DNA of 31,111 nucleotides, taken from an uncultured Burkholderiales bacterium (lineage in GTDB: Bacteria > Pseudomonadota > Gammaproteobacteria > Burkholderiales > JALYOK01). The DNA lies in assembly GCA_964539965.1 (NCBI GenBank), contig CAZILI010000003.1, positions 1 to 31,111 on the forward strand, read 5' to 3'. This document shows, piece by piece, positions 786-23,502 of this stretch; within the stretch, counting starts at the first letter, position 1; each line of letters begins with the position of its first letter. The notes below the pieces were generated by a model. That model worked only from the letters and a program-made list of their open reading frames with translations. It did no database searches and was not told the DNA's origin. Both the position numbers and the translations under genes were made by a program.

Positions 786-1625
786 ATGGTCATGCAGATT
801 GTCGACGCGCAGATACATTTGTGGGGCAGCGGGCTGCCGAGCAACCGCGCCCATCGCCAGGTTACGGCGTTTACTACGGCGGAAGCCGTCCGGTTGATGG
901 ACGAAGGCGGTGTGGATGCGGCTGTGATCCACCCGCCGAGTTGGGATCCCGGCGCCACTGAGATGGCGTTCGACGCGGTACGTGACCATCCAGGACGATT
1001 CGCGATCATGGGCTCGCTGCCTCTCGAGCGGGCGGAGTCGCGCGCCCGCATCGCGAGTTGGAGAGATCAGCCGGGGATGCTGGGCCTGCGCTATCTATTT
1101 CTCAACGAGCCGGAGCGGTCTTGGTTGGAGGACGGATCGTTAGACTGGGTGTGGCGTGAGGCAGAGCGCGCTGCTGTTCCCATTGCAGTGCTCGCCACCG
1201 ACTCGCTGCGAGTGATCGGAGCTATTGCCGAGCGGCATCCTGGCCTACGCCTGACCATCGATCATTTGGGTGGGAGGGGGGGCAACACGACATTAAAGGA
1301 CGCCGCCGCTATGACGCATATGCCGGAACTGTTGGCGCTTGCTCGATATCCGAATGTTGCCGTGAAGGCGACCGGTGCGCCTGGTTATTCCAGCGAACCG
1401 TATCCGTTTCCGGCAATGCACGTGTACTTGCGCCAGGTATTCGATGCGTTCGGCCCTCATCGAATGTTTTGGGGAACCGACATCACGAAAATGCCTGTCT
1501 CCTGGCGCCAGTGCATCTCGATGTTCACCGAAGAGCTACCTTGGCTTTCCGCCGAGGACAAGAAGCTCGTGATGGGAGACGCCGTCTGCGCCTGGTGGGG
1601 TTGGGATCGGAGCGCGCGCGTTTGA
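786..1625 (+). CDS. Amidohydrolase family protein (Amidohydro_2 type)
   Basis: IVDAQIHLW, GLR, IDHLG, NVAVK and RMFWGTD motifs; 279 aa. Confidence 0.85.
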   Translation: MVMQIVDAQIHLWGSGLPSNRAHRQVTAFTTAEAVRLMDEGGVDAAVIHPPSWDPGATEMAFDAVRDHPGRFAIMGSLPLERAESRARIASWRDQPGMLGLRYLFLNEPERSWLEDGSLDWVWREAERAAVPIAVLATDSLRVIGAIAERHPGLRLTIDHLGGRGGNTTLKDAAAMTHMPELLALARYPNVAVKATGAPGYSSEPYPFPAMHVYLRQVFDAFGPHRMFWGTDITKMPVSWRQCISMFTEELPWLSAEDKKLVMGDAVCAWWGWDRSARV

Positions 1626-1740: not shown

Positions 1741-2337
1741 GTGGTGTGCAAGTCTGGCGAAGCTAACGCCAGTGGGCCGACCGCGCGTCGGTCTACGCTA
1801 AAGATGGCGCTGAGCCTACTCTTTGGGCTCGATCTCGCGCCGAGTGTACGAGCTCAGAACACCGAGCAAAACAGCAACCGGCCACAGCCGGGGGATCAGT
1901 TGGTGTTTGCCGACGGGGAGCGCAAGGGTCAGCCTATCGCCGCGGCGGACCTACAAGTAGACGGGCCTCAAATCCAGGCGTTTCCCATCGACCCGGCGAG
2001 CAAGGTGATTCGCGACGGGTCGCGCCTGAACAAGGTCTTGCTTGTCCGCTGCGACCCGCAGCGACTGAATGAAGAGACGCGCGCCCGTGCGGCCGACGGC
2101 ATTGTCGCCTACTCCGCGGTATGTACGCACCAGGGCTGCGATGTCGGCGCGTGGGACGCCGAAACCAAGACGTTATGGTGCCCTTGTCATGACTCGAAGT
2201 ACGATCCGAGAGAAAGTGGTCGGGTCGTGGGTGGACCCGCTCCCAAGCGTCTTGCTACGCTGCCGCTGAAGATGGTGGACGGCGCGCTGACGGTCGCGGC
2301 GGGGTTCAGCGGCTCAGTGGGTTTTCAGATCCGCTGA
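1741..2337 (+). CDS. Rieske [2Fe-2S] protein with twin-arginine-like signal peptide
   Basis: CTHQGC and CPCHDSKYD boxes, GPAPKRL Pro loop, and N-terminal ARRSTLK followed by a hydrophobic stretch. The GTG start is uncertain. Confidence 0.85.
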   Translation: MVCKSGEANASGPTARRSTLKMALSLLFGLDLAPSVRAQNTEQNSNRPQPGDQLVFADGERKGQPIAAADLQVDGPQIQAFPIDPASKVIRDGSRLNKVLLVRCDPQRLNEETRARAADGIVAYSAVCTHQGCDVGAWDAETKTLWCPCHDSKYDPRESGRVVGGPAPKRLATLPLKMVDGALTVAAGFSGSVGFQIR

Positions 2338-2385
2338 GCATTGTTGTCCAGTAGCTCAGAGCCTTTAAGAGAGGAGGAACTCTGT

Positions 2386-4131
2386 ATGCGCACGAAATGG
2401 AGTAAAGCCAAACTAGTTTTGTTGCTCGGTGCAATCGGCGGCTTGCCGCTGATCGGCCATGCCCAAGTGGCCAACTACAGCCCGGTCACGGATGCGAGAT
2501 TGCAAAACCCTGAGGCAGAGAACTGGCTCATGTATCGCGGCAACTATGCGGGTTGGGGGTATAGCCCGCTGGGCAAGATCGATTCCGGCAATGTCGGCAA
2601 GCTCATTCCCGCCTGGACTTTCGGCACCGGAGTGGGCGAGGGCCACCAGTCGCCGCCGATGGTCAACAACGGGGTGATGTTTGTAACCACTCCTCAAAAT
2701 CAGGTGATAGCGCTCGATGCGCGCAGCGGCGAGGTTCTATGGCAGTACAAGAAGGCACTACCCGAAGACCTGATGCAGTTGCATCCGACCAATCGCGGCG
2801 TCGCGCTGTACGAAGACAAGGTGTATCTCGCGACGGTTGACGCGCACTTGGTCGCCCTCGACGCGAAGACCGGCAAGGTCGTGTGGGATAAGGTGGTCGA
2901 CGATTACAAGAAAGGCTACTACTGCACGTTGGCTCCATTGGTGACCAACGGCAAGGTCATGGTCGGCACCTCGGGGGGCGAGTTGGCCATTCGTGGTTTC
3001 GTGCAAGCTTTCGACGCGAAGAGCGGTGACACGCTTTGGCGCACTTACACCATTCCCGAGCCGGGCCAAAAAGGCTCTGAGACGTGGAGCGGCGAGGCAT
3101 GGAAGACGGGCGGCGGATCGGTGTGGATTCAGGGTACCTTCGACCCGCAGCTGAACCTCGCGTACTGGGGCGTTGGAAATGCGGCTCCTTGGGCTGGAGA
3201 CTTCCATCCCGGCGACAATCTCTATACGACTTCAGTCATCGCACTCGACCCCAATACCGGCGCCATCAAAGCGCACCACCAATACCACTGGAACGACTCG
3301 TGGGACTGGGATGAGGTGACACCGCCGATGTTGATCGACGTCCAGCGCGACGGGAAGACCATAAAGGGTCTCGTCCACCCCGGGCGCAATGGCTATCTGT
3401 GGCTGCTGGAGCGCGCCGCCGACAAGATCTCGTTCGTGGCGGCGAAGCCGTACGTGACTCAGAACGCCTTTAAGAGCATCGACCCCAAGACGGGCCGGCC
3501 CGAGTATGTGCCGGAGCATACCCCGGTCAAGGGCAAGCTGATCGATTTCTGCCCGTCACTGTGGGGGGGCAAGGATTGGCCGCCGGCCGCGTACAACCCC
3601 AAGACGAAGCTGGTCTACATCCCGTCCAACGACAACCACTGCGGTAGCTTGAAGTCCAAGGCCGACGAGCCGATGGTTGCCGGCCAGCTCAAGCTCGGTG
3701 TCGAGATACCCGACATCAAGCTGATCGTCGATCCCGCAACCAAGACGATCGGCAAGTTGCAGGCTTGGGATGTCGCCAAGGGGCAGCGCGTATGGGCGCA
3801 GGATTTCGAGAGCCATAGCTTCGGGCCAGTGCTCACCACCGGCGGCAATCTCGTGTTCCAGGGCGGGACTAACGACCGCTACTTCCGCGCGTTCGACGCG
3901 ACCACGGGCAAGCAACTATGGCAGTTCCGCACCAATTCCGGGGTCACGGCCGTGCCGGCGTCGTACATGGTTGACGGTGTGCAATACATTGCGGTCCAGT
4001 CTGGTTGGGGTGTCGACGCCGAGCGCATGCAAGGCTCCCTCATCGCGGCAGGCTACAAGCGTAAGAACTACGACCCGAACGTGCCCATCCCGCAGGGCGG
4101 CGTGCTTTGGGTTTTTGCTCTAGGGAAGTAA
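2386..4131 (+). CDS. PQQ-dependent dehydrogenase, methanol/ethanol-like family (581 aa, secreted)
   Basis: Start moved to ATG 2386 because of the GAGGAGG RBS at 2371-2377. It has a signal peptide, NWLMY, Trp-docking repeats (GEVLWQY, GKVVWDK, GDTLWRT, GKQLWQF), GGELAIRG, GVGNAAPW, WDWDE and LWGGKDW. Confidence 0.9.
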   Translation: MRTKWSKAKLVLLLGAIGGLPLIGHAQVANYSPVTDARLQNPEAENWLMYRGNYAGWGYSPLGKIDSGNVGKLIPAWTFGTGVGEGHQSPPMVNNGVMFVTTPQNQVIALDARSGEVLWQYKKALPEDLMQLHPTNRGVALYEDKVYLATVDAHLVALDAKTGKVVWDKVVDDYKKGYYCTLAPLVTNGKVMVGTSGGELAIRGFVQAFDAKSGDTLWRTYTIPEPGQKGSETWSGEAWKTGGGSVWIQGTFDPQLNLAYWGVGNAAPWAGDFHPGDNLYTTSVIALDPNTGAIKAHHQYHWNDSWDWDEVTPPMLIDVQRDGKTIKGLVHPGRNGYLWLLERAADKISFVAAKPYVTQNAFKSIDPKTGRPEYVPEHTPVKGKLIDFCPSLWGGKDWPPAAYNPKTKLVYIPSNDNHCGSLKSKADEPMVAGQLKLGVEIPDIKLIVDPATKTIGKLQAWDVAKGQRVWAQDFESHSFGPVLTTGGNLVFQGGTNDRYFRAFDATTGKQLWQFRTNSGVTAVPASYMVDGVQYIAVQSGWGVDAERMQGSLIAAGYKRKNYDPNVPIPQGGVLWVFALGK

Positions 4132-4146
4132 AAGCTACTAAAAGAC

Positions 4147-4187
4147 ACCGGGCCGGCTGCTGCGTGCAGTCGGCCCGGTTTGTTTTT
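4147..4187. terminator. Intrinsic terminator, probably bidirectional, between the convergent PQQ dehydrogenase and CVNH genes
   Basis: Stem accgggccggctgc / gcagtcggcccggt (one G-U pair) with a 5-nt loop. It is followed by ttgttttt on + and by gtctttt on -. Confidence 0.8.
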
Positions 4188-4214
4188 CCGATCAGCCGAA
4201 GGCCCGGCTGCCGC

Positions 4215-5087
4215 TTAGGGCTTGGCCCGTGTAGTCGCGTTGCCACGCTCGCAGGTAAGCCTGCCGCCGTCGTTACGAACTGGGCTTTGACAAGTTTCCG
4301 GATCGGCCAAGAACGTCGGCTGCCAGCGACCGACCGCGGTCATGCAGGTGGCGGATAGCACGTTGCCGTTCAATTCCAGCCCCCGACAGCCCTCGACCTT
4401 CGTGTCGACCGCCACCACCGACTCACCGGAGCAGCGCAGTTCTCCATTGACATTGGCGATACCGCCCCGACAGAGCCGATAGTTGTCCAGGTGGGTTGGC
4501 TGCCACATTCCGGCCGCATTCTTGCAAGTGCTACGTAGGGTAGTCGAGTTCACAAAACTATCACGGCAAGTTGCCAGATAAGAGCCGCGCGGCGGTGTAG
4601 TGCCTTGGTTGCATTGAAGCTGTCCTTCCACGTTGCTGATTTGCCCCAGGCACTGCGTTACGCCGACGAGTTCGGTCTTCCGCCATGTTCCACCCGCGTC
4701 CAAGCAGGTGCCATGCAAGGTATTTCCGCTTACGTAGCTATCACGGCAGCTTTGCGAGTAGGGGCCGAACGGCGCGGGGGCGCCTCGCTCGCAGACCAAC
4801 GTGCCGTTGGAGTTCGCGATGTCTCCGACGCACGCGCGAAAATCCTCCAGCCGGGTCTCGAGAAACTGGCCGCCGCGCGACTTGCAGTTACTTTCCAGCG
4901 TGCGGCCCACGACCCTGCTGTCCTTGCAGTTGAGCAAATAGCTGCCTTGAGGTGGGGATTCCGCCCAGGCCGGCGCGCCGGCGCTCCCTGTTAGCAAGGC
5001 TACGACGCCGACGACAACCCTTCCTTGCCGAGGGCGCTGCAGCGATTGACCAGGCGCCCGATGGGTGTGCTGATACATGCTCACCAT
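4215..5087 (-). CDS. Secreted cyanovirin-N-like (CVNH) repeat protein, putative lectin
   Basis: Hydrophobic signal (VVVGVVALLTGSAGAPAWA) followed by four ~58-aa repeats of GSY..xC.d..v.g.tL..xC....G.w..t.L.....C.g.i.N.nG.L.C. The start could be 5123, 5087 or 5078. Confidence 0.7.
   Translation of the reverse strand: MVSMYQHTHRAPGQSLQRPRQGRVVVGVVALLTGSAGAPAWAESPPQGSYLLNCKDSRVVGRTLESNCKSRGGQFLETRLEDFRACVGDIANSNGTLVCERGAPAPFGPYSQSCRDSYVSGNTLHGTCLDAGGTWRKTELVGVTQCLGQISNVEGQLQCNQGTTPPRGSYLATCRDSFVNSTTLRSTCKNAAGMWQPTHLDNYRLCRGGIANVNGELRCSGESVVAVDTKVEGCRGLELNGNVLSATCMTAVGRWQPTFLADPETCQSPVRNDGGRLTCERGNATTRAKP
4243..4955 (-). repeat. Four tandem protein-level CVNH-like repeats, each with 4 Cys
   Basis: R1 QGSYLLNC..SNGTLVC; R2 FGPYSQSC..VEGQLQC; R3 RGSYLATC..VNGELRC; R4 KVEGC..DGGRLTC. 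Confidence 0.8.
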
Positions 5088-5202
5088 CGTACTCCGCACC
5101 CCGCCGTCGAACAATTCGGGCACGGGTTCGACGTCGAGGCGGCCAGCGTTGTCAAGTTATGTCGCAGGGTGGTGCCAAGGCTAGAGCGACCGCGAGACTA
5201 TG

Positions 5203-5335: not shown

Positions 5336-7657
5336 ATGACAACCAGCGAGTTCGAAGCGAGCGTTCTTGCCGAGGAGGAAGCAGTCGGCGAGAGGAGTGT
5401 CTTCACGACCCGGGAGGCTCCGTCTGTCGCACCCAAAGGCAATGACCGGCCAAGCGATTGGCCGGAGGGCGGTCCGATCGATCTGCGTGTCCATGACTTG
5501 CCACATCGCTCTTCGACTACCGAGTGGTGGTACCTCAATTGCCATGTCGCGACTCATGGCGGGAGGCAGCTCTCGTTGTTCGCAAGTTTCTTTCGCATTC
5601 TCCTCGATCAAGGCGCAGCGAGCAGCAAACCCGAGTATGCGCACGCGCTGAGTTGGGCGCTGGTCGACCCGAGCGCCGGGAAGTATTACGCCGATTCGCT
5701 GGTTGATCCATGCGCGCCGGCCGTCGCATTGGAAAAGCTCGAACGCGGCGAATGCGGTTTCGATCCGTTGTTGAAGCGCGCCGCCCAGGATATGTTGCGC
5801 GAGGGAAAGGTCCCGCACCCGGACCGCCTGATGGCAGCAGCCGCGCAGATTAGTCACACCAAGCTCGACTTGGACTTCGGCGGCTGCGGTTTACGTAAGC
5901 TAGAGAACGGCGCTTACGCTCTGAGTCTCACGCGCGATACGGCGGACGCTGCCTGCGAACTCGTGTTCCACCCACTGAGCGCGCCGATACGCCACGGCGA
6001 CGACGGCCTGGTGCGCGGAGCAGCGGGTGAGGGCATGTTCTACTACTTTATTCCGAAATGCCGAGTAGAGGGGCAGATCCGCGTTGAGGCCGAAGCACCG
6101 GTGAAGGTGGCCGGCAGCGGTTGGTACGACCACGAATTCGGTCAATCCCGCAAGGATCAAGAGCAAACGCAAGCTTCGTGGAATTGGATTTCGGTTCAGC
6201 TCGACAACGGCTATCAGATCTCCGCGTACGATCTCTTCGACGACGTTCGCGCGACCGGGCTCGGGCGCTGGGCGATCGTGGTAGATCCACAGGGTCGTCG
6301 CCATAAGAGCGTCAATTTTCGTCTCGAGCCGCTGACGCATTGGATCAGCACGCGTACGTTCGCCGAGTACCCGACTAGTTGGGCACTCGAAATCCCCGAA
6401 GTGGAACTGTCGCTCGAGGTCGAAGCGGCTTTCCCCGCGCAGGAGTTCGTGACCATCATTTCCGAGCCCGCCTTTTGGGAAGGTCGTGTCGGTGTGGTGG
6501 GCGAGATGAGGGGGCGGCCAGTGAAAGGCCTAGGCTTCGTCGAGCGCACGGGATTCGGCGCGCCGCGTGCGTTGCCCCAGCTCTTATCCGCAGCAGGCGA
6601 GCAGACTCGCCGCGCAGTCGGTGCGCTCCTGCCCACCAGGCCGACCGAGGCACAAGCGCGCCGTTTGATCGCCAGCGAGGCGCATCGTCATTACGTCGAA
6701 GACTTGGATCTGGACCAACACGCGCGCACCGTCCTCGCGCCGCTGCGAGAGATGATCGATCGCGGGGGAAAGGCGTGGCGCTCCTTCGCGATGCTCGCTT
6801 GCATCGACGCGGTCGGAGGCGACTCGCAACCCTTCGCCGACTGGGCGGCGTTGCCTGAGCTCGTGCATACCGGCTCGCTTATCGTCGACGACATTGAAGA
6901 CGGTTCGACACTGCGCCGCGGCGGCCCCGCATGCCACGTCATGCATGGCGAGGCGATTGCGATCAACGCCGGAAATGCCGCGTACTTTCTGGGCGAGGCG
7001 TTGCTGCGTGAGAGCCGGTTGGACGGCGAGATGAAACTACGCCTGTACGAGCTGTACTTCGAAGCGCTGCGCGCCGCTCACGCCGGTCAAGCCGCCGATA
7101 TCGACGGGCTGCGCGGCGCCATGCCCGCGGTGGTGGAAAGCGGCGCCGGCGACCTCCTCGAACGCCGCGTGTTGTGCGTGCACCGCCTGAAGTCCGCAGT
7201 GCCGGTTCGCTCCCTGGCGATGATGGGCGCGATCATCGGCAGCGGTACGCCCGAACAAGTCAGACGCATGGGTGACTACTTCGAGAAGGTCGGTCTCGCG
7301 TTCCAGATCATGGACGACGTTCTCAACCTGCGAGGCTTTCCTGAAGGGCTGAAGACCCGGGGAGAAGACATCTTCTGCGGAAAAGTGACCATGCCGATCG
7401 CCAAGGCCATGTCCCGGCTCGGACTACGACGTCGCCGCAAACTGTGGAAGGTTCTCTCAGCCAAGCCGCGCGACGCTGTCACCGTTTCCGGAGTCATCGA
7501 TGAACTGGAAGCTTGCGGTGCCATCTCCGCTTGCGTCGAACAAGCGCGGGAACTTCCGGAGCACGCCTGGCGTGCCTTGGATCCGTTGTTGAAGGACTCG
7601 CGGACCAAACTCATGCTGCGAGCATTCGGCTGGTATGTGTTGGAAAGAAACTACTGA
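5336..7657 (+). CDS. Fusion protein: N-terminal CrtC/AttH lipocalin-like domain + C-terminal trans-isoprenyl diphosphate synthase (GGPPS-like)
   Basis: N half: EWWYLN, MFYYFIP, GWYDHEFG, WNWISVQL, YPTSW, FWEG, GLGFVE. C half: GGKAWR, HTGSLIVDDIED (6887-6901), LRRG, GQAADI, FQIMDDVLNL (7313-7327), GEDIFCGK. Confidence 0.85.
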   Translation: MTTSEFEASVLAEEEAVGERSVFTTREAPSVAPKGNDRPSDWPEGGPIDLRVHDLPHRSSTTEWWYLNCHVATHGGRQLSLFASFFRILLDQGAASSKPEYAHALSWALVDPSAGKYYADSLVDPCAPAVALEKLERGECGFDPLLKRAAQDMLREGKVPHPDRLMAAAAQISHTKLDLDFGGCGLRKLENGAYALSLTRDTADAACELVFHPLSAPIRHGDDGLVRGAAGEGMFYYFIPKCRVEGQIRVEAEAPVKVAGSGWYDHEFGQSRKDQEQTQASWNWISVQLDNGYQISAYDLFDDVRATGLGRWAIVVDPQGRRHKSVNFRLEPLTHWISTRTFAEYPTSWALEIPEVELSLEVEAAFPAQEFVTIISEPAFWEGRVGVVGEMRGRPVKGLGFVERTGFGAPRALPQLLSAAGEQTRRAVGALLPTRPTEAQARRLIASEAHRHYVEDLDLDQHARTVLAPLREMIDRGGKAWRSFAMLACIDAVGGDSQPFADWAALPELVHTGSLIVDDIEDGSTLRRGGPACHVMHGEAIAINAGNAAYFLGEALLRESRLDGEMKLRLYELYFEALRAAHAGQAADIDGLRGAMPAVVESGAGDLLERRVLCVHRLKSAVPVRSLAMMGAIIGSGTPEQVRRMGDYFEKVGLAFQIMDDVLNLRGFPEGLKTRGEDIFCGKVTMPIAKAMSRLGLRRRRKLWKVLSAKPRDAVTVSGVIDELEACGAISACVEQARELPEHAWRALDPLLKDSRTKLMLRAFGWYVLERNY

Positions 7658-7667
7658 AGGAGGAGCT

Positions 7668-8195
7668 ATGTTGGACGGGATATGCCTACAAGACGTCATG
7701 CCGCATTCATCGCCAGTCTTTTTGCCCCAGACGAGAAGCAGGAAGCGCTCGGCCTCCGTGTTTCATGAATCGATCTGCCTGCACACGGAGTACGGTCCGC
7801 AATTCATCGACCTGACCGATCGCGTGAACGAGATCGTCGCGCAGTCCGGCATGTCCTACGGAATGGTGAACATACAAACGCGCCACACCACGACCGCGAT
7901 CGTCATCAACGAAAACGAGCCGCTGCTCCTGGAAGACATGAAGCTCATGCTCGATCGCTTGGCGCCGGCTAGCATGGACTACCAGCACAACAATTTTGCC
8001 ATTCGCACCGTCAACATGGTGCCGGGCGAAGTCGCCAACGGTCACGCGCACTGCCAAGCGTTGCACCTACGCGCCTCCGAGACCGTCAATTTGCTCGACG
8101 GTCGACTGCAACTGGGGCGCTGGCAGCGCATCTTTCTGCTCGAGCTTGACCACGCCAGGGAGAGAACCGTGTCCGTGCTGCTGCTTGGCCAATGA
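7668..8195 (+). CDS. yjbQ: YjbQ/UPF0047 family protein (secondary thiamine-phosphate synthase-like)
   Basis: HTTTAIVINENE, NGHAH and LQLGRWQRIFLLELD motifs. Start set at ATG 7668 after the AGGAGGAG RBS. Confidence 0.8.
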   Translation: MLDGICLQDVMPHSSPVFLPQTRSRKRSASVFHESICLHTEYGPQFIDLTDRVNEIVAQSGMSYGMVNIQTRHTTTAIVINENEPLLLEDMKLMLDRLAPASMDYQHNNFAIRTVNMVPGEVANGHAHCQALHLRASETVNLLDGRLQLGRWQRIFLLELDHARERTVSVLLLGQ

Positions 8196-8243
8196 CCGTG
8201 AGTGGCTTCGTCCGCCACGCCGTTCAACCCCGCCCGTAGCAAA

Positions 8244-9536
8244 ATGTACGCGCTATTCACCGCTATTCCTCTGATCGGGCATTTGAACCCGCTCGTGTAC
8301 CAAGCCGTGGAGTTGCAGCGCCGTGGCTGGCGGGTCGCGGTCGCCAGTACCGCCGAGGTCGGCGCATTCCTTGAGCGTGAACATCCGGCCGTCCCGTTCC
8401 TCGCGCTCGGAACGTCAGGCGGCGCGGCCGCCTATCTCAAGCGCGTGCAAGCGCTCGCCTCAAGCGACCGGGATTTTGCGCGCGGCGCGTTGCGCATCGT
8501 GCGAGCGCTGAAAGCGATGTGGCCTTGCATGTTTGACGGCTTGACCGACGCCGTGCGCCAAGACCGCCCCGACGTCATGGTCGTTGACTTGTTCTCTTCA
8601 GCTGGCATGTGCGTGGCCGAAGCAAACGCGATTCCGTTTGTCGTCAACAACGCCAACTTGCTGCCTTGCCTGCCTGTGCAAATGCTGCCTGCGGCGAATC
8701 ATGTTCCCACCTTGTTCTCCGGCCGCTCGATCCGGGCCGTCGGGCGCGCGCGAGCATGCCTGGCGCCGTTGCTTCGCCGACTTGCTGCCGGAGCAGCCGC
8801 ACTGACAGTGGGGCGAGATCTCAACGTCTTGCGGCGCAGTCGAGGTTTGCGCTCGATCGATATCCCCGAATTGCTCAACGGGCGCCCAATTCTGGTCGAC
8901 GGGGCATTCGGGCTCGAATACGAGCGTGCGCTTCCTGCCAACGTACACATGGTGGGCGCCATGCTGCCGGCGGAGCCGGCTCCTCTACCGGGAGATCTAG
9001 CGGCGTGGCTCGATCGGGGGCGGCCGGTGGTCTATGTCAACCTCGGCACCATGACGATCGCCACCCCCAAGCAGCTCGGCACGATGCGTGATGCGTTGAA
9101 GGAGGGACCGTTTCGCGTCCTATGGATAGTGGGAGAGTCTGATGCAGGGGCGCTGGCGCCCGCGGCTTCCGAGCGCTTCAAGATCCTACCTTGGGGCCCG
9201 TCTCCGCTTGCGGTGCTCTCGCATCCCAATGTACGCGCCTTTGTCTCTCACTGCGGCATCAATAGCGTGCATGAGGCGATCCAGGCGGGCACGCCGATCG
9301 TGGGCATCCCGATGTTTGCAGACCAACTCGACATGGGCGTGCGCCTGAGCGACGCGGGCATCGGCATTTGCCTCGACAAGGTCCGATTCACGGCATTCGA
9401 ACTGCGCCAGGCGCTGCAACAAGCAATGAGCGATTCGTCCTTCGCCGTAAATCTCGCGCGGGTGCGCGGATGTTTTCAGCGCGCCGGCGGGCCGGCGCGC
9501 GCGGCCGATCTTATCGTGCAAGCGGCAAGGAGCTGA
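8244..9536 (+). CDS. GT1-family (UGT/MGT-like) glycosyltransferase, paralog A
   Basis: N-terminal IGHLNP, PDVMVVD, and a PSPG-like box WGPSPLAVLSHPNVRAFVSHCGINSVHEAIQAGTPIVGIPMFADQ. Start 8244 was chosen by analogy to paralog B (MYALF); 8202 is possible. Confidence 0.9.
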   Translation: MYALFTAIPLIGHLNPLVYQAVELQRRGWRVAVASTAEVGAFLEREHPAVPFLALGTSGGAAAYLKRVQALASSDRDFARGALRIVRALKAMWPCMFDGLTDAVRQDRPDVMVVDLFSSAGMCVAEANAIPFVVNNANLLPCLPVQMLPAANHVPTLFSGRSIRAVGRARACLAPLLRRLAAGAAALTVGRDLNVLRRSRGLRSIDIPELLNGRPILVDGAFGLEYERALPANVHMVGAMLPAEPAPLPGDLAAWLDRGRPVVYVNLGTMTIATPKQLGTMRDALKEGPFRVLWIVGESDAGALAPAASERFKILPWGPSPLAVLSHPNVRAFVSHCGINSVHEAIQAGTPIVGIPMFADQLDMGVRLSDAGIGICLDKVRFTAFELRQALQQAMSDSSFAVNLARVRGCFQRAGGPARAADLIVQAARS

Positions 9537-9537
9537 C

Positions 9538-10893
9538 ATGTACGCGCTATTCGTTTCCCTTCCCTACGTCGGACATGTCAATCCACTGTTGCGACAAGCC
9601 CAGGCGCTGCAGCGGCGCGGTTGGCGTGTCGGCGTCGCCGGTATGCGGGAAATGGCAAGACACGTAGCGGCCGAAGCGCCGGATATCCCGTTTGTCGATC
9701 TGGGTGCGTTGGGCGACTTAACGCTCGAACTGCGCCGCCTGGAACTGACAGCCTCGATGGATCCCAACTACCTAACCGGCGCGTTGACCATCGCCAAGGG
9801 ACTCGTTTGGGTCGGGCCCCTCATGCTCGAGGGTTTGTGCCGGCACCTGGCGCAAGAGCGTCCCAACGTGGTCGTGACCGACATCTTCACCGCGGCCGGA
9901 GCTTGTGCCGCAGAGCGTTTCGGCATTCCGTTGGTCTTCAACAATCCGTCGTTGCTGACGGGGGTTCCGGTCAGCCTGCTGCCGCCTGCGCCGGACGTTC
10001 CGTTCACCCTCACGGCCCGTTCCATCCACGCAATGCGCTGGTGCGATCGCGCCATCGAGCCGTTGCGCCGAATCCTCAGCGACTGGGCAACCGCGGCCAC
10101 CGTGGGTCGCCATCTCAACGATCTGCGCAAGCGCGCGGGGCTGCCGGCGACGAATCTTACCGACCTCTTGCGCGGCAAGCCCATCCTCGTGAACGGATCG
10201 TTCGGCCTCGAGTACCGCCGAGCGCTGCCCGAAAATATCCATATGGTGGGACCTATGCTGGCGCAAGCCGCACCGGCTCTATCTCCCGAACTCGACCGCT
10301 GGCTGACACAAGGTCCGCCGGTGGTGTACGCCAACCTCGGCACCGTGGTGAAGCCTTCCACTTCACAACTCTCCCATTTGGCGGAGGCGCTCAGATCGAC
10401 CCGCAGGCGCGCACTCTGGGTACTCAAGCCCGACCTTGCCCCGGGACGGTGCATCAGCGAGACGGAAAGCCTGCGAGTGGTGCAATGGGTAACTTCGCCG
10501 CGCGCGATACTTGCCCATCCCAACGTCAAGGCCTTCGTTTCGCACTGCGGCATCAACAGCGTCTACGAGGCGCTCGATGCCGGCACACCGATCGCCGGGA
10601 TTCCGTTCTTCGCCGACCAGCGCGACATGGCAGTGCGCGTGGCGGATGCCGGGGTAGGTCTTTGGCTCGACAAGTCGCGCTTTACCGCAAAGACGCTGGC
10701 CGCACTTCTCGACCGGCTCGTCGACGGAGACGGGTTTGCCCAGCGCATCGCCCCGCTACGGGCGGCCTTCTCCGAGGCGGGCGGCGCTGAGCGAGCAGCC
10801 GACATCATCGAGCGATCAGCGAGCGAACAGCCCGCAGCCGGCTTGGCCGCCGGGCGCAGGGCACTACGCTCGGAGGCCGGCCAATGCGTGTAG
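9538..10893 (+). CDS. GT1-family (UGT/MGT-like) glycosyltransferase, paralog B
   Basis: VGHVNP, PNVVVTD and WVTSPRAILAHPNVKAFVSHCGINSVYEALDAGTPIAGIPFFADQ. It starts 1 nt after the paralog A stop. Confidence 0.9.
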   Translation: MYALFVSLPYVGHVNPLLRQAQALQRRGWRVGVAGMREMARHVAAEAPDIPFVDLGALGDLTLELRRLELTASMDPNYLTGALTIAKGLVWVGPLMLEGLCRHLAQERPNVVVTDIFTAAGACAAERFGIPLVFNNPSLLTGVPVSLLPPAPDVPFTLTARSIHAMRWCDRAIEPLRRILSDWATAATVGRHLNDLRKRAGLPATNLTDLLRGKPILVNGSFGLEYRRALPENIHMVGPMLAQAAPALSPELDRWLTQGPPVVYANLGTVVKPSTSQLSHLAEALRSTRRRALWVLKPDLAPGRCISETESLRVVQWVTSPRAILAHPNVKAFVSHCGINSVYEALDAGTPIAGIPFFADQRDMAVRVADAGVGLWLDKSRFTAKTLAALLDRLVDGDGFAQRIAPLRAAFSEAGGAERAADIIERSASEQPAAGLAAGRRALRSEAGQCV

Positions 10894-19491: not shown

Positions 19492-20343
19492 CTACTGAGC
19501 GTCGATGCGAAACCGGTACAACTTCTCGCCGGTTTGGTATGCGATCTGACGAGCGATCGGCGAAGGCAACTGGGCGAGCCATTTGCGATGCCAAACGGCA
19601 AGGGCAGGCACGTCCGGCCAGCGCGAAGGCGTCCAGGTGTCGCTGCCGACGACGAATCGGTCGGGGAAGCGCAGAAAAAGCGCGCGCCAGCTCGGCGCCA
19701 AGGCGCCTTCCGGATCGGCGACGTCGTAGCGGTACGACAGCTCGACCCACAGGTTCGGAAACCGCTCCAGCCACCGCTCGATCGTCTCGATCGGCGTGGT
19801 GATGCCGGCGTGCGCCCACAGCACGCGCGCCTTCGCGTCATGGGCAAACAATCTCTCGATCGCGGCGGCATCCGAGTGCGCGTGCAGGATGAGGTCGTTC
19901 GCGACCGCCAACTCCACCACCCGGCGAATGACGTCGGTTTCGGCTTCCTTGCCGTTGAGGTGGAACTCGCCGATGCCGCGATAGCTTCCGCGCTTCAGTT
20001 CTGCTTGCAAGTAGTCCGGCAACTCCGGATCGCGCCACCATGTCGCGCGGTCGGCATACCAGGTCTCGAGGCTCGTGGTCTTGCGGTAGACCCTGAGTTC
20101 GGCGATGAACCGTGACCGATCGGCCGCCACCAGCTTGAGCGTGCCGTCGTTCGGCGTGCTCGAGAGTAAGGCCTTCTTGATGCCGGCCTGGTCGAGAAGC
20201 TTGAGTGCAGTCGCGACCGGGTACTCATCCCAGGCGTTGCCGTTGTAGTGAATATGGCCGTCGAACAAAGGCAGTTCGTCGCCGCCGAGCGCGGCGCCGG
20301 CAGACAGAAGCAAGCTGAGTAACAGGGATCGGAGTGTGTTCAT
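19492..20343 (-). CDS. Secreted amidohydrolase-family protein
   Basis: Signal peptide, LFDGHIHY (HxH), GIGEFHL, LHAH, WAHAG and FVVGSDTW. Its start overlaps the CCP stop by 4 nt. Confidence 0.82.
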   Translation of the reverse strand: MNTLRSLLLSLLLSAGAALGGDELPLFDGHIHYNGNAWDEYPVATALKLLDQAGIKKALLSSTPNDGTLKLVAADRSRFIAELRVYRKTTSLETWYADRATWWRDPELPDYLQAELKRGSYRGIGEFHLNGKEAETDVIRRVVELAVANDLILHAHSDAAAIERLFAHDAKARVLWAHAGITTPIETIERWLERFPNLWVELSYRYDVADPEGALAPSWRALFLRFPDRFVVGSDTWTPSRWPDVPALAVWHRKWLAQLPSPIARQIAYQTGEKLYRFRIDAQ

Positions 20344-21476
20344 GGTGGGGGCAAGGGATAATCCTTGAAAGCGGCGCGTGCTTGGTCGGCCAGCTGCTGC
20401 ACGTTGTCGCCGGTGAGGGAGCGTAAGAATTCTACTAGCGCTCGCTTGTCCTCTTCGGAGAGAGCCCGCAGCTCCGGAGGCAAGACCTTGCTCGCATCGG
20501 TTGCTGCGTTAGGCCGATGAGATTCGACGACCGCTTCCAGAGTCGCCAGCGAGCCGTCGTGCATGTAGGGCGCAGTCAGCGCGACGTTGCGCAGGCTCGG
20601 AGTTCGAAACGCGTTCTTGTCGGCGACCCGTCCCGTCACTTCGAATCGCCCCGCGTCGCGGCTTATGGGCTCTGAGACGCTCGCCAGCGCGGCGGCATCC
20701 ACTTCGACGTATACGTCGGGAGCGAGCTGCACCTTGTGCTTTTCGGCCGGCGTCGCGCTCTGTCCGACATCGTGGAAGCGATGGTCGGTGAACAAGCCAC
20801 TAGCCTCGCCGTAGCGGTGGCAGCTGGGGCAGCCCAACGCGTTGAAAACCGAAAATCCCCGTTGCGCCTCGCTCGACAGCGCCTGCGGCTCACGTTGCAA
20901 GAACCAGCGATCGAAACGCGAGTTGGCTGCCAGCAACGTCCGCTCGTAGCTTGCCAGCGCTTGGCCGATAGTTTCCCTGCTCGGGCCGCGTCCGTCGAAT
21001 GCCGCTTCGAACAGCCCGCGATAGTCAGCGAGCGACTTGAGCCTGCCCGCGACTTGTTCGACCGATGCATTCGCCATTTCATTGCGCGCCAACAGGGGCC
21101 GCCAGACTTGATTCTCCAGGCTCGACTCGCCGCCGTCGCGCAGCAACGCAGGCTCAAACGCGACGTTGAGCAGGCTCGGCGCGTTGCGGCGCACGCTTCT
21201 GCCCTCGAAGCCGATCGGCGTCGCCATGTCGTTTACCGCAAAAGCCTGCTCGGGCACATGGCACATGGCGCAGGACATGGTGCCGTTCGGCGACAAGCGT
21301 CGATCCATGAAGAGCTTGCGTCCCAACACGATCTTGGCCGGCGTGAGAGCATTGTCTGCCGGCGTGGTCAACGCCGGCAGACCGAGGGGGACCGTCACCT
21401 GAGCCGCTGCCGGTCCCAGCCCCGCTAGGCAAATCACCACACTGACGCGAGCGGCGAGGGCAGTCGCTGCGGTCAA
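20340..21476 (-). CDS. Di-heme cytochrome c peroxidase / MauG-like protein
   Basis: LGRKLFMD..LS, CAMCH, RNAPSLLN, CPSCH and FRTPSLRNVALTAPYMHDG; located in the mto cluster. Confidence 0.88.
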   Translation of the reverse strand: MTAATALAARVSVVICLAGLGPAAAQVTVPLGLPALTTPADNALTPAKIVLGRKLFMDRRLSPNGTMSCAMCHVPEQAFAVNDMATPIGFEGRSVRRNAPSLLNVAFEPALLRDGGESSLENQVWRPLLARNEMANASVEQVAGRLKSLADYRGLFEAAFDGRGPSRETIGQALASYERTLLAANSRFDRWFLQREPQALSSEAQRGFSVFNALGCPSCHRYGEASGLFTDHRFHDVGQSATPAEKHKVQLAPDVYVEVDAAALASVSEPISRDAGRFEVTGRVADKNAFRTPSLRNVALTAPYMHDGSLATLEAVVESHRPNAATDASKVLPPELRALSEEDKRALVEFLRSLTGDNVQQLADQARAAFKDYPLPPP

Positions 21477-21482
21477 TCGGCC

Positions 21483-22139
21483 TCACTCCAGCAACAACGT
21501 CTCAATGTCGTTCATCACGACCTGCGGCATGAGGAAAGCAGTCGTGTAGATCTCTCGAACCTGCCCTTCCTTGTCGAGCAAGAACACCTTGAGCACGTGA
21601 CTTAGCTCACGATGCATCTTGCCGGTCTTGCCGTCCGTTGCCACGCGCACGTCCTGGCCGAAACCGTCCAGCAAAGGCACCAGGTCTTTCGGTCTCGGAG
21701 TAGTCAGGAAATACCACTTGAGCCCCCGATCGTCCTTTACGTGGCTGCCGCCGTAGTGCCGCATGACATCCGGCGTGTCGCGCAGCGGATCGAACGACAG
21801 GCTCACGAACCGGATCTTACCGCTCCATTCTGGTTTGGCTTGAATCGCCTGTTTGAGGGCGGCAAACACCTCGTAGGCCAGCGGACACCCTTTCGGGTCG
21901 GCACAACTCGTGTAGATAAAAGACAGCAGCGTGATCTTCTCGCGCGTGAACTGAGCGAGCGGTCTGCGGCGTCCGTCTACGTCGAGCACTACGCCGTCCG
22001 GGACGGCCATGATCCTGTTCAATTCATAACTGCCCGGCGGCGGCGGCGTGAAATCGAGTTTGGCTTGCGGTCCAAGCTCGTGCGCCTGGGCCGCCGCGGT
22101 CAGTAGTGCGACCGCCGCCAAATGCCACCGACTCTTCAC
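21483..22139 (-). CDS. SCO1/SenC-family copper chaperone
   Basis: LLSFIYTSCADPKGCP, VSLSFDPLRDTP, WYFLT and HVLKVFLLD; signal peptide present. Confidence 0.88.
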   Translation of the reverse strand: MKSRWHLAAVALLTAAAQAHELGPQAKLDFTPPPPGSYELNRIMAVPDGVVLDVDGRRRPLAQFTREKITLLSFIYTSCADPKGCPLAYEVFAALKQAIQAKPEWSGKIRFVSLSFDPLRDTPDVMRHYGGSHVKDDRGLKWYFLTTPRPKDLVPLLDGFGQDVRVATDGKTGKMHRELSHVLKVFLLDKEGQVREIYTTAFLMPQVVMNDIETLLLE

Positions 22140-22155
22140 GCGACTCTCCCGTTCT

Positions 22156-23502
22156 CTATCGGCTTGCTTCGGCCAGAGTTTCTCGTTGGTCGTCGAGGAA
22201 TGCCGCGCGCGTGGCCTTGGAACCGAACTTCATGTGATGCGCGCGACCGAGCTTCTCCTTGTTGAAATCCACTTCGAAGGCTAGTTTCAGCTCCTTGCCG
22301 TCCCAGTTGAACGCGCGCACGAACTGTTCGTTGTCTTCGCCTTTCTTGTCCCAATTGGCGAGCAGGGAGGAGGTGATGTACACGCGCTTGCCGTCCCAGC
22401 TTTGCGACACCATGTTGACTTGCTTGCCGGTTTGTTTGGTGTAGGTCTCTTTCGGCGCCTCTGGATTCGACAAGTCAAAATAGCGCGTCGTGCCGTCCAT
22501 GAAGGTGTTGACCCAGAGGCCCTTGCCGTCGGCGCTGATCGAAATGTCGACCGGCAGTGGAATCTTGGCCGGATCGCCGATCGTGGCCACATCCTTCGCC
22601 TGCCATTCGCCTTTGTCGTCTTGCTTGATCAGCCAAATTTTCGACGTGAGCGCAGTGGCGACCACGGCCCAATTGTCGCCCGGCTTGAGCGACCAGCGAA
22701 TCTCGAGCGGCGAGCCGGGCACGCTGAAGATCTTGGTCGGCTTCATGGCTTTCACATCCCAAGCGACCATGGTAGATCCGAAGCGCTTCATCGCCTCTTG
22801 ATCTTTGACCATCTTACCCATGTCCATCATGTAGTTGTTCCACCCGGTGAAGCTCGAGGTGAGCATCACGTTCTTGGCGGGATTGATGCCGATGTCGTAG
22901 CCGTAGCCATCGCCTTGCACGTCGCCCATCTTCGCGCTCGGCATGTCGTACTTGGCGATGAAATCGCCCTTGTTGTTGAACAGCGCCATCCCCGTCACGC
23001 CGCTGTGATCCTTGCTATTGGATAGCCCTTGCACCAGCATGCGCCCCGGCATGGCGTAGAACGTGTGGGGTCCCACATAGCCCGTCTTCTCGACCAGGTT
23101 GGCGATGGTCTTGGCGAGCTTGGGTTTGGCGGGATTGGCGCCGATATCGAACACATAGATCTTGCTGTTGTCCAATCCGCCGGCCCAGAGGAAGCGTCGG
23201 TCGTCGGTGAATCCCATGTGATGCGCTTCGCCGCGCTCGCCGACCGATAGCGTGGCGATCACCTTGCCGTACGTCTTGCTCTTGGGATTGACGTCGATGG
23301 TCACTAGCTTGTCTTGACCGTCGCCCAGGCCCTCCACGCCCAGGGTCCACACGTAGACGTAGTCCTCTTGCCCCTTGATGAGTTTGGTGAGATAGGGGCT
23401 GTTGCAAGTCTCATCGGCGTAGCTCGACGGGATCCAGGCGCCGACCATGGCGGCCAAGCTGGTGGCAAGCGTGAAGCGAAGGGCGGCCGAGCGTTGACGC
23501 AT
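22156..23502 (-). CDS. mtoX: Methanethiol oxidase (SBP56/selenium-binding protein family)
   Basis: Mature N-terminus DETCNSP..., VWTLG, GEAHHMGFTDDRR, GPHT, SFTGW and SSLLANWD (candidate TTQ Trp pair), and C-terminal AHHM. Gene order mtoX-SCO-MauG matches the known mto cluster. Confidence 0.8.
   Translation of the reverse strand: MRQRSAALRFTLATSLAAMVGAWIPSSYADETCNSPYLTKLIKGQEDYVYVWTLGVEGLGDGQDKLVTIDVNPKSKTYGKVIATLSVGERGEAHHMGFTDDRRFLWAGGLDNSKIYVFDIGANPAKPKLAKTIANLVEKTGYVGPHTFYAMPGRMLVQGLSNSKDHSGVTGMALFNNKGDFIAKYDMPSAKMGDVQGDGYGYDIGINPAKNVMLTSSFTGWNNYMMDMGKMVKDQEAMKRFGSTMVAWDVKAMKPTKIFSVPGSPLEIRWSLKPGDNWAVVATALTSKIWLIKQDDKGEWQAKDVATIGDPAKIPLPVDISISADGKGLWVNTFMDGTTRYFDLSNPEAPKETYTKQTGKQVNMVSQSWDGKRVYITSSLLANWDKKGEDNEQFVRAFNWDGKELKLAFEVDFNKEKLGRAHHMKFGSKATRAAFLDDQRETLAEASR

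Follow-up and report, generated by a model that had tools for sequence, protein, structure and literature searches.

Which protein accepts the electrons of a quinoprotein dehydrogenase that lacks the cysteine ring of its family and is encoded directly behind an exported Rieske protein? The question is raised by a 31,111-nucleotide stretch of DNA (positions 1 to 31,111 of contig CAZILI010000003.1; hereafter the window) from an uncultured Burkholderiales bacterium, whose metagenome-assembled genome (MAG; GCA_964539965.1) is 65% complete and comprises 519 contigs. On its forward strand, the window encodes a Rieske [2Fe-2S] protein of 198 amino acids (positions 1741..2337) and, after a gap of 48 nt between stop codon and ATG, a pyrroloquinoline quinone (PQQ)-dependent dehydrogenase of 581 amino acids that belongs to the methanol/ethanol family (2386..4131). 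Here, we propose with moderate confidence that the Rieske protein acts as the soluble periplasmic electron acceptor, or as a redox subunit, of this dehydrogenase, which is probably lanthanide dependent and whose substrate is probably an alcohol. To our knowledge, all quinoprotein alcohol and methanol dehydrogenases studied so far donate their electrons to a c-type cytochrome or a heme domain. In the window, the Rieske protein would probably take the electrons that cytochrome c takes in all of these studied relatives, and the two genes form a hitherto undescribed unit that is widespread in soil bacteria.

The layout of the locus is best explained by a single operon. The Rieske gene begins with GTG and has GGAGG upstream, while the dehydrogenase gene begins at the ATG at 2386, behind the ribosome-binding site GAGGAGG (2371..2377, forward strand, 8 nt 5' of the ATG), and not at the TTG given in the list of open reading frames (ORFs). 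Downstream, a strong intrinsic terminator-like hairpin on the forward strand (4147..4189), composed of a 14-bp stem with 11 G-C pairs (4147-4179) and then TTGTTTTT, would close the operon.

The dehydrogenase and its missing cysteine ring

We found that the dehydrogenase scores 581.4 bits against TIGR03075, the model for the methanol/ethanol PQQ family, and so passes its cut-off of 480.05. Among solved structures, the lanthanide enzyme PedH (6zcv) comes closest, with an E-value of 1.9e-103 over residues 24-580, and 25 more solved family members, which are eight-bladed propeller enzymes, match at E < 1e-73, a likeness by sequence. In the HMMER alignment, "edlmql.hptnrg" of the dehydrogenase stands against "ddirpccdvinrg" of PedH, with Q131-L132 replacing the Cys-Cys pair and the loop being one residue shorter. 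This agrees with the initial annotation, which had noticed MQLHPTNRG in the place of CCDxVNRG and had located it correctly: the loop that replaces the CCDxxNRG ring, M130-QLHPTNRG-138, is encoded at 2773..2799 on the forward strand, with H133 at 2782. The CC dipeptide occurs nowhere in the 581 residues of the dehydrogenase, and the protein contains no heme motif.

The ligands of the active site are kept, as had also been claimed. E199 in GGEL (metal-ligand Glu, 2980..2982), N265 in GNAA (metal-ligand Asn, 3178..3180), and D307-W-D309 (3304..3312, within W306-D-W-D-E310 at 3301-3315), all on the forward strand, align with the Glu, Asn, and D-F-D of PedH, the NRG aligns with its counterpart, and these positions are invariant across the clade to which the protein belongs. 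D307 corresponds to the catalytic Asp and D309 to an extra Asp. An extra Asp two residues past the catalytic one is used to predict lanthanide dependence (PMC12628762, PMC8546591), and since the window enzyme has it, the metal is probably a lanthanide. At the N-terminus, residues M1-A26 (2386..2463, forward strand) read in the translation as a Sec-type signal peptide, with the predicted cleavage between PLIGHA and Q.

Loss of the ring could also indicate that the protein is a noncatalytic or cofactor-less "empty quinoprotein" and that the pair serves a nonredox or other role. In favor of this, the dehydrogenase shows a sub-threshold match to TIGR04528, the "acido-empty-quinoprotein group A" model (390.6 bits against a cut-off of 650), and its genome does contain degraded paralogues without the ring: among at least 12 PQQ dehydrogenase paralogues, 8 retain CC, while 3 others lack CC and also show degraded ligand positions (contigs C13, C211, and C268). 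However, the clade of the window enzyme, unlike the degraded paralogues, shows no variation at any metal or PQQ position, and among the paralogues of this genome the window copy alone combines CC loss with the retention of every active-site position. In addition, the hosts make PQQ, as pqqC was found above its cut-off in the window genome and in all five other carriers tested. Since the TIGR03075 cut-off is passed, the ligands are invariant in the clade, and the hosts encode pqqC, the protein looks catalytically intact and like a genuine PQQ-dependent member of the methanol/ethanol family. We consider an empty quinoprotein highly improbable and rejected this reading because of the invariant active-site positions and the family cut-off that is passed. 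The paralogues that do resemble empty quinoproteins, with no CC and altered ligand positions, are encoded at C13:100-1758, C211:4669-6264, and C268:8-1204. As a separate observation, one of the CC-bearing paralogues (C2:19370-20939, reverse strand) is split over two reading frames, by either a frameshift or an assembly error.

To place the missing ring among relatives, we compared the best 120 of about 8,000 scored homologues, which are 64-87% identical to the window protein. All 120 carry xxHPTNRG, most often as QLHPTNRG, none carries CC, and 119 carry WDWDE. The closest named relative comes from a Rokubacteria MAG, and databases name such relatives "alcohol dehydrogenase (cytochrome c)" or "methanol/ethanol family PQQ-dependent dehydrogenase." Trees were built from representatives at 50% identity (FastTree with 120 rows and an IQ-TREE quick tree with 34 rows); their rows are unnamed representatives without MxaF, XoxF, ExaA, or PedH, and placement relative to these known types rests on the ranking of solved relatives and on the representatives. 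The HPTN clade is monophyletic (SH-aLRT 100) and nested among the CC-bearing lineages P0143/P0148, P0146, and P0157, with a support of 98 for the enclosing group. If the root lies outside, the ring was lost once, at the base of the HPTN clade. CC loss is not rare in the wider family, where the larger tree forces at least 8 changes, and several CC-less lineages have N-terminal heme domains. The loop motif, WDWDE, and the Rieske neighbor recur in hundreds of homologues, which is more than chance would give, and CC loss, shared by all 120 of the closest relatives, is a trait of the clade and not an accident.

The Rieske protein and its place beside the dehydrogenase

The Rieske protein matches the Pfam Rieske family (E 5e-11), and among solved structures it is closest to the Thermus thermophilus Rieske protein (1NYK/3FOU; E 2.4e-38 over residues 49-196). 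It falls far below the cut-offs of the bc1, b6f, and arsenite oxidase models, reaching 51.3 bits against the arsenite oxidase small subunit (TIGR02694, cut-off 95.65). Box I, C128-T-H-Q-G-C133 (2122..2139), supplies a cluster Cys and His together with a disulfide Cys, and box II reads C147-P-C-H-D-S152-K-Y154 (2179..2202), both on the forward strand. The four Cys, both His, S152, and Y154 are all present and make up the set found in bc1/b6f-type high-potential centers. bc-type Rieske centers with this Ser and Tyr have potentials of about +150 to +320 mV, and with PQQ/PQQH2 at about +90 mV, high-potential Rieske centers lie above this couple and close to cytochrome cL, which fits a role as acceptor for the dehydrogenase. 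All true orthologues keep C-x-H-x-x-C, and the second box is conserved as C-x-C-H-x-S-x-[F/Y], with Ser in nearly all. A more distant Rieske protein (L123, 41% identity) adjoins a ribosomal protein S1 gene and marks the edge of the family. We found a single Rieske copy in the 65%-complete genome of the window. No cytochrome b gene is adjacent to it, the neighbors being an amidohydrolase and the PQQ dehydrogenase, and among the neighbors in 81 loci, no cytochrome b family appears repeatedly.

The protein begins with a twin-arginine translocation (Tat) signal (1786..1857, forward strand), which we read from the translation as R16-R17 in ARRSTLK, a short hydrophobic stretch, and a likely cleavage site between V-R-A and Q; a Tat-signal Rieske gene 48 nt upstream of the dehydrogenase is also what had been noted at first. 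An RRxxLK-type motif, a short hydrophobic (h-) region, and an AxA-type site occur in 69 of 72 orthologues and are followed by a conserved RPQxGDxLVF start. Cleavage of the Tat signal is probable, and the mature protein would then be soluble in the periplasm.

We then considered how often the two genes stand together. A scan of one genome per species gave at least 599 pattern matches, at least 584 of which encode a dehydrogenase relative, and we inspected the best 80 loci. These come from about ten phyla (Pseudomonadota, 45; Rokuibacteriota/Methylomirabilota, 12; Binatota, 7; Acidobacteriota, 7; and Gemmatimonadota, Deinococcota, and others) and include the cultured genera Bradyrhizobium, Skermanella, Roseicella, and Paracraurococcus. 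A Rieske homologue is present in 70 of the 80 loci; in 68 of them it immediately precedes the dehydrogenase gene in the same orientation. The initial annotation had let its proposal depend on whether homologues have a Rieske neighbor, and by these counts it is not refuted. In one locus (L079), the Rieske gene is found 6 kb downstream of the dehydrogenase gene, and in a Binatia locus (L061:6051-9716), a P450 gene lies between the two; the same type of P450 gene precedes the dehydrogenase gene at a contig edge in another Binatia locus (L052:3-2804). An alphaproteobacterial MAG has three PQQ dehydrogenase and two Rieske genes in tandem (L062:4125-12282), and the pair has therefore been duplicated locally. 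Clustering of all flanking ORFs revealed no other widely conserved neighbor.

The association also holds in the reverse direction. Strong Rieske matches are followed by the dehydrogenase in 7 of 7 cases in the relatives of the window, in 4 of 4 in a sample of its phylum, and in 7 of 7 in an Acidobacteriota-centered sample. One of these last seven comes from a genome that the 80 loci already cover, which leaves 17 of 17 independent cases (18 with the re-found one). Furthermore, the pairwise distances of Rieske and dehydrogenase orthologues correlate (r = 0.59), and none of 999 permutations gave a value as high, such that the two proteins have diversified together.

The near-obligate adjacency, short gaps, and co-diversification would also suit a Rieske protein that is a tightly bound subunit, like AioB or, structurally, MxaI, rather than a diffusing carrier, and that perhaps stays tethered through a Tat signal that is not removed. 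The N-terminal segment serves as a membrane anchor in bc-type Rieske proteins, the Thermus relative among them, which speaks for such a tether. On the other hand, the h-region is short and contains an Asp in the window, an AxA-type site follows it in most orthologues, a Rieske gene is missing altogether from some clade members, which speaks against a structural requirement, and no fusion of the two proteins was seen. Altogether, we regard a tightly bound or tethered subunit as unlikely, though worth keeping in mind, and continue to favor a soluble acceptor or redox subunit.

A comparison with cytochrome c genes near the relatives also fits our reading. Each CC-bearing paralogue in the window genome with enough flanking sequence (contigs C1, C2, C70, and C193) has a small CxxCH ORF just downstream, where the window copy has a Rieske gene upstream. 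The initial annotation had described the Rieske protein as taking part "instead of a cytochrome c." This holds insofar as the Rieske gene is the sole conserved neighbor; it is less clean in the window itself, where a truncated CxxCH ORF lies at 2-379 on the same strand, although this ORF is not conserved beside the pair in other loci. The ORF is truncated at its 5' end, contains one CxxCH, shows a sub-threshold match to Cytochrome_P460, and lies two genes upstream of the Rieske gene and 1.4 kb upstream of the pair.

Several findings weigh against the Rieske protein as the acceptor of the dehydrogenase. Ten of the 80 loci lack a Rieske gene, and since the upstream DNA of two is too short to judge, the count becomes 8 of 78 informative loci. 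Three Rieske-less genomes were searched whole; two gave no match, and a Trueperaceae genome gave one weak match that is probably the subunit of its own bc complex. Because such genomes exist, the clade can work without a Rieske protein, and the partner is dispensable or replaceable. Indeed, cytochrome c takes the Rieske place in a few clade members. The Rieske-less Trueperaceae locus L065 encodes a CC-less clade member with an adjoining tri-heme cytochrome c gene, which has c550/PedF/cL-like domains and lies directly upstream of the enzyme gene, and the clade member P0140 (1075 aa, no Rieske partner) fuses SGL lactonase-like, cytochrome c, and PQQ domains; its CC-bearing sister P0143 also has a fused cytochrome c domain. 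At the same time, such an exchange of partners at one position fits the Rieske protein as the electron acceptor in the other members. Moreover, the CC-less paralogues on C13 and C211 have a small CxxCH ORF just downstream. CC loss is compatible with a cytochrome c partner, and the rule implied at the outset, that no ring means no cytochrome, was too strong in the light of P0140, L065, C13, and C211 and fails when taken strictly. Both the adjacency and the correlated distances are also expected from the co-inheritance of a mobile two-gene unit. A fusion lends no support either: among longer proteins, a Rieske query brought up actinobacterial QcrA-type proteins only and no fusion of a Rieske protein with the dehydrogenase, and the Rieske motif occurs in 0 of 150 representatives at 50% identity. 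Finally, the marks of a high-potential center had been noted from the window, where the disulfide Cys pair, S152, and Y154 are indeed present, but the Tyr after box II is Phe in most orthologues, and the Rieske potential may consequently be lower than assumed.

Possible electron route, substrates, and neighboring genes

If the Rieske protein is the acceptor, the dehydrogenase would be exported by Sec, would be loaded with PQQ and a metal (probably a lanthanide) in the periplasm, and would oxidize an alcohol-type substrate there. The Rieske protein would already have folded around its [2Fe-2S] cluster in the cytoplasm when Tat exports it, separately from the Sec-exported dehydrogenase. In a stable or a transient complex, it would take single electrons from reduced PQQ, which is the role of cytochrome cL, c550, or XoxG for the CC-bearing relatives, and would hand them on to an acceptor of high potential, for example cytochrome c, a cupredoxin, or a terminal oxidase.

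A recurrent extension of the pair bears on both the route and the substrate. In 20 of 81 loci, genes for the Rieske protein, the PQQ dehydrogenase, a 2Fe-2S small subunit, and a molybdenum hydroxylase large subunit with a Tat signal stand on the same strand (e.g., L068:7155-12437). None of these 20 four-gene arrangements includes a flavin adenine dinucleotide (FAD) or cytochrome subunit, and since cytochrome c is absent, the Rieske protein is the sole visible electron outlet in these loci. The arrangement suggests a periplasmic oxidation of alcohol to aldehyde to acid.

The same two-subunit molybdenum enzyme, which comes without a cytochrome of its own, could instead mean that the adjacency reflects co-regulation only, with the Rieske protein serving a molybdenum hydroxylase or an oxygenase and the dehydrogenase using a cytochrome c encoded elsewhere. 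The CxxCH ORF at 2-379 in the window and the existence of Rieske-less members would fit such an arrangement. However, the pair is kept in 68 loci as opposed to 20 for the molybdenum enzyme, which makes the pair the conserved core, no other neighbor recurs, and each sampled strong Rieske match precedes a dehydrogenase; in addition, the Rieske protein is exported and of the bc type, unlike an oxygenase ferredoxin. We therefore find co-regulation alone improbable, and the Rieske protein as electron acceptor of the dehydrogenase remains the reading that we pursue.

Clues to the substrate come from several kinds of neighbor. An SGL lactonase-like domain is fused to two clade members, and together with the molybdenum hydroxylase genes and the Binatia P450 genes, these fusions point to alcohols or hemiacetals, with no single substrate on which they agree. 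In the Trueperaceae locus, the gene order is a tri-heme cytochrome c gene and then the SGL-PQQ fusion (L065:4504-9662). The amidohydrolase gene of the window (786-1625), which lies 5' of the Rieske gene and is weakly lactonase-like, is not conserved beside the pair elsewhere.

The remainder of the window holds genes of other kinds. Convergent with the dehydrogenase gene, a gene on the reverse strand (4215-5123) encodes repeated CVNH (cyanovirin-N-like) lectin domains. On the forward strand (5336-10893), a 773-aa protein joins CrtC-like lipocalin domains to a polyprenyl diphosphate synthase. A YjbQ-family gene and two macrolide/UDP-type glycosyltransferases come next, and the region may serve the synthesis of a terpenoid or carotenoid glycoside as a gene cluster. 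Farther along, on the reverse strand, an SBP56-family protein (methanethiol-oxidase-like) adjoins a di-heme cytochrome c peroxidase/MauG-family protein (20340-23502).

Comparison with known systems

The pair matters for how quinoprotein dehydrogenases pass on their electrons. Their disulfide ring, a rare feature, has been linked to the step in which PQQH2 passes electrons to the cytochrome (Mennenga et al. 2009, in the account given by PMC8546591 and PMC12997753), and a ring-less clade that is encoded with a Rieske protein amounts to a natural experiment on the function of this ring. If our reading is right, the Rieske protein would stand for a new class of electron carrier in the periplasm. 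The clade is not small, as several hundred species genomes matched the search patterns from which the best 80 loci were inspected, and its lanthanide signature and frequency in soil phyla bear on estimates of lanthanide-dependent metabolism, which at present enter these genes under generic names such as "XoxF-like" or "alcohol dehydrogenase (cytochrome c)." The cultured carriers Bradyrhizobium (sp. LMG 9283 and B. tropiciagri), Skermanella (S. stibiiresistens SB22), Roseicella (sp. DB1501), and Paracraurococcus (P. lichenis) make the idea open to a direct test. Our full-text searches, whose coverage excludes most subscription journals, found no paper that links a quinoprotein or PQQ dehydrogenase to a Rieske partner.

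With PedH/ExaF-type enzymes (type I PQQ alcohol dehydrogenases), the window enzyme has in common the Glu, the Asn, both Asp, the NRG, and a periplasmic location with a Sec signal. However, PedH has vicinal Cys-Cys and donates its electrons to cytochrome c550 (PedF) (PMC12997753), whereas the window enzyme has Q-L, a shorter loop, and a Rieske neighbor. XoxF and MxaF belong to the same TIGR03075 family, and the D-x-D of the window enzyme is as in XoxF, but these enzymes have a disulfide ring and a cytochrome c partner (cytochrome cL or XoxG) and fall on a different branch of the tree, while the window enzyme has no ring. The quinohemoprotein alcohol dehydrogenases (type II; 1yiq, 1kv9, and 1kb0) are the second-best solved relatives of the dehydrogenase (E about 1e-94) and carry a built-in one-electron acceptor beside the PQQ domain. 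Both their Cys-Cys ring and their C-terminal heme c domain are absent from the window enzyme, and in P0140, the rare fused form of the clade, the cytochrome c domain is N-terminal.

On the Rieske side, a precedent in design is arsenite oxidase AioAB, in which the Tat-signal Rieske subunit AioB is the electron exit to cytochrome c or azurin. The likeness consists of a Tat-signal Rieske protein encoded beside a periplasmic oxidoreductase and of weak sequence matches to AioB. On the other hand, the partner in AioAB is a molybdenum enzyme, whereas in the window it is a PQQ propeller with its own Sec signal, such that no hitchhiking on Tat takes place. The Thermus thermophilus bc Rieske protein (1NYK/3FOU) shares both cluster boxes and the disulfide with the window protein over 148 aligned residues, but it reads CPCHGGVY, with Gly where CPCHDSKY of the window has Ser. 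It is also a subunit of a quinol oxidase complex with cytochrome b, whereas the window Rieske protein has no adjacent cytochrome b gene and an N-terminus that resembles a cleavable Tat signal.

The MxaF/XoxF and type I-III classes have two hallmarks, the Cys-Cys ring and a dedicated c-type cytochrome or heme acceptor. Since the window enzyme shows neither, we do not file it as PedH, ExaA, or XoxF. Instead, we see an even chance that the pair represents a fourth kind of quinoprotein alcohol dehydrogenase system, in which a ring-less lanthanide-PQQ enzyme would be connected to the respiratory chain by a dedicated Rieske protein, soluble and of high potential. This would be the first Rieske acceptor for any quinoprotein, and the system would occur commonly, both among uncultured soil phyla (Rokubacteria, Binatia, and Acidobacteria) and in Bradyrhizobium.

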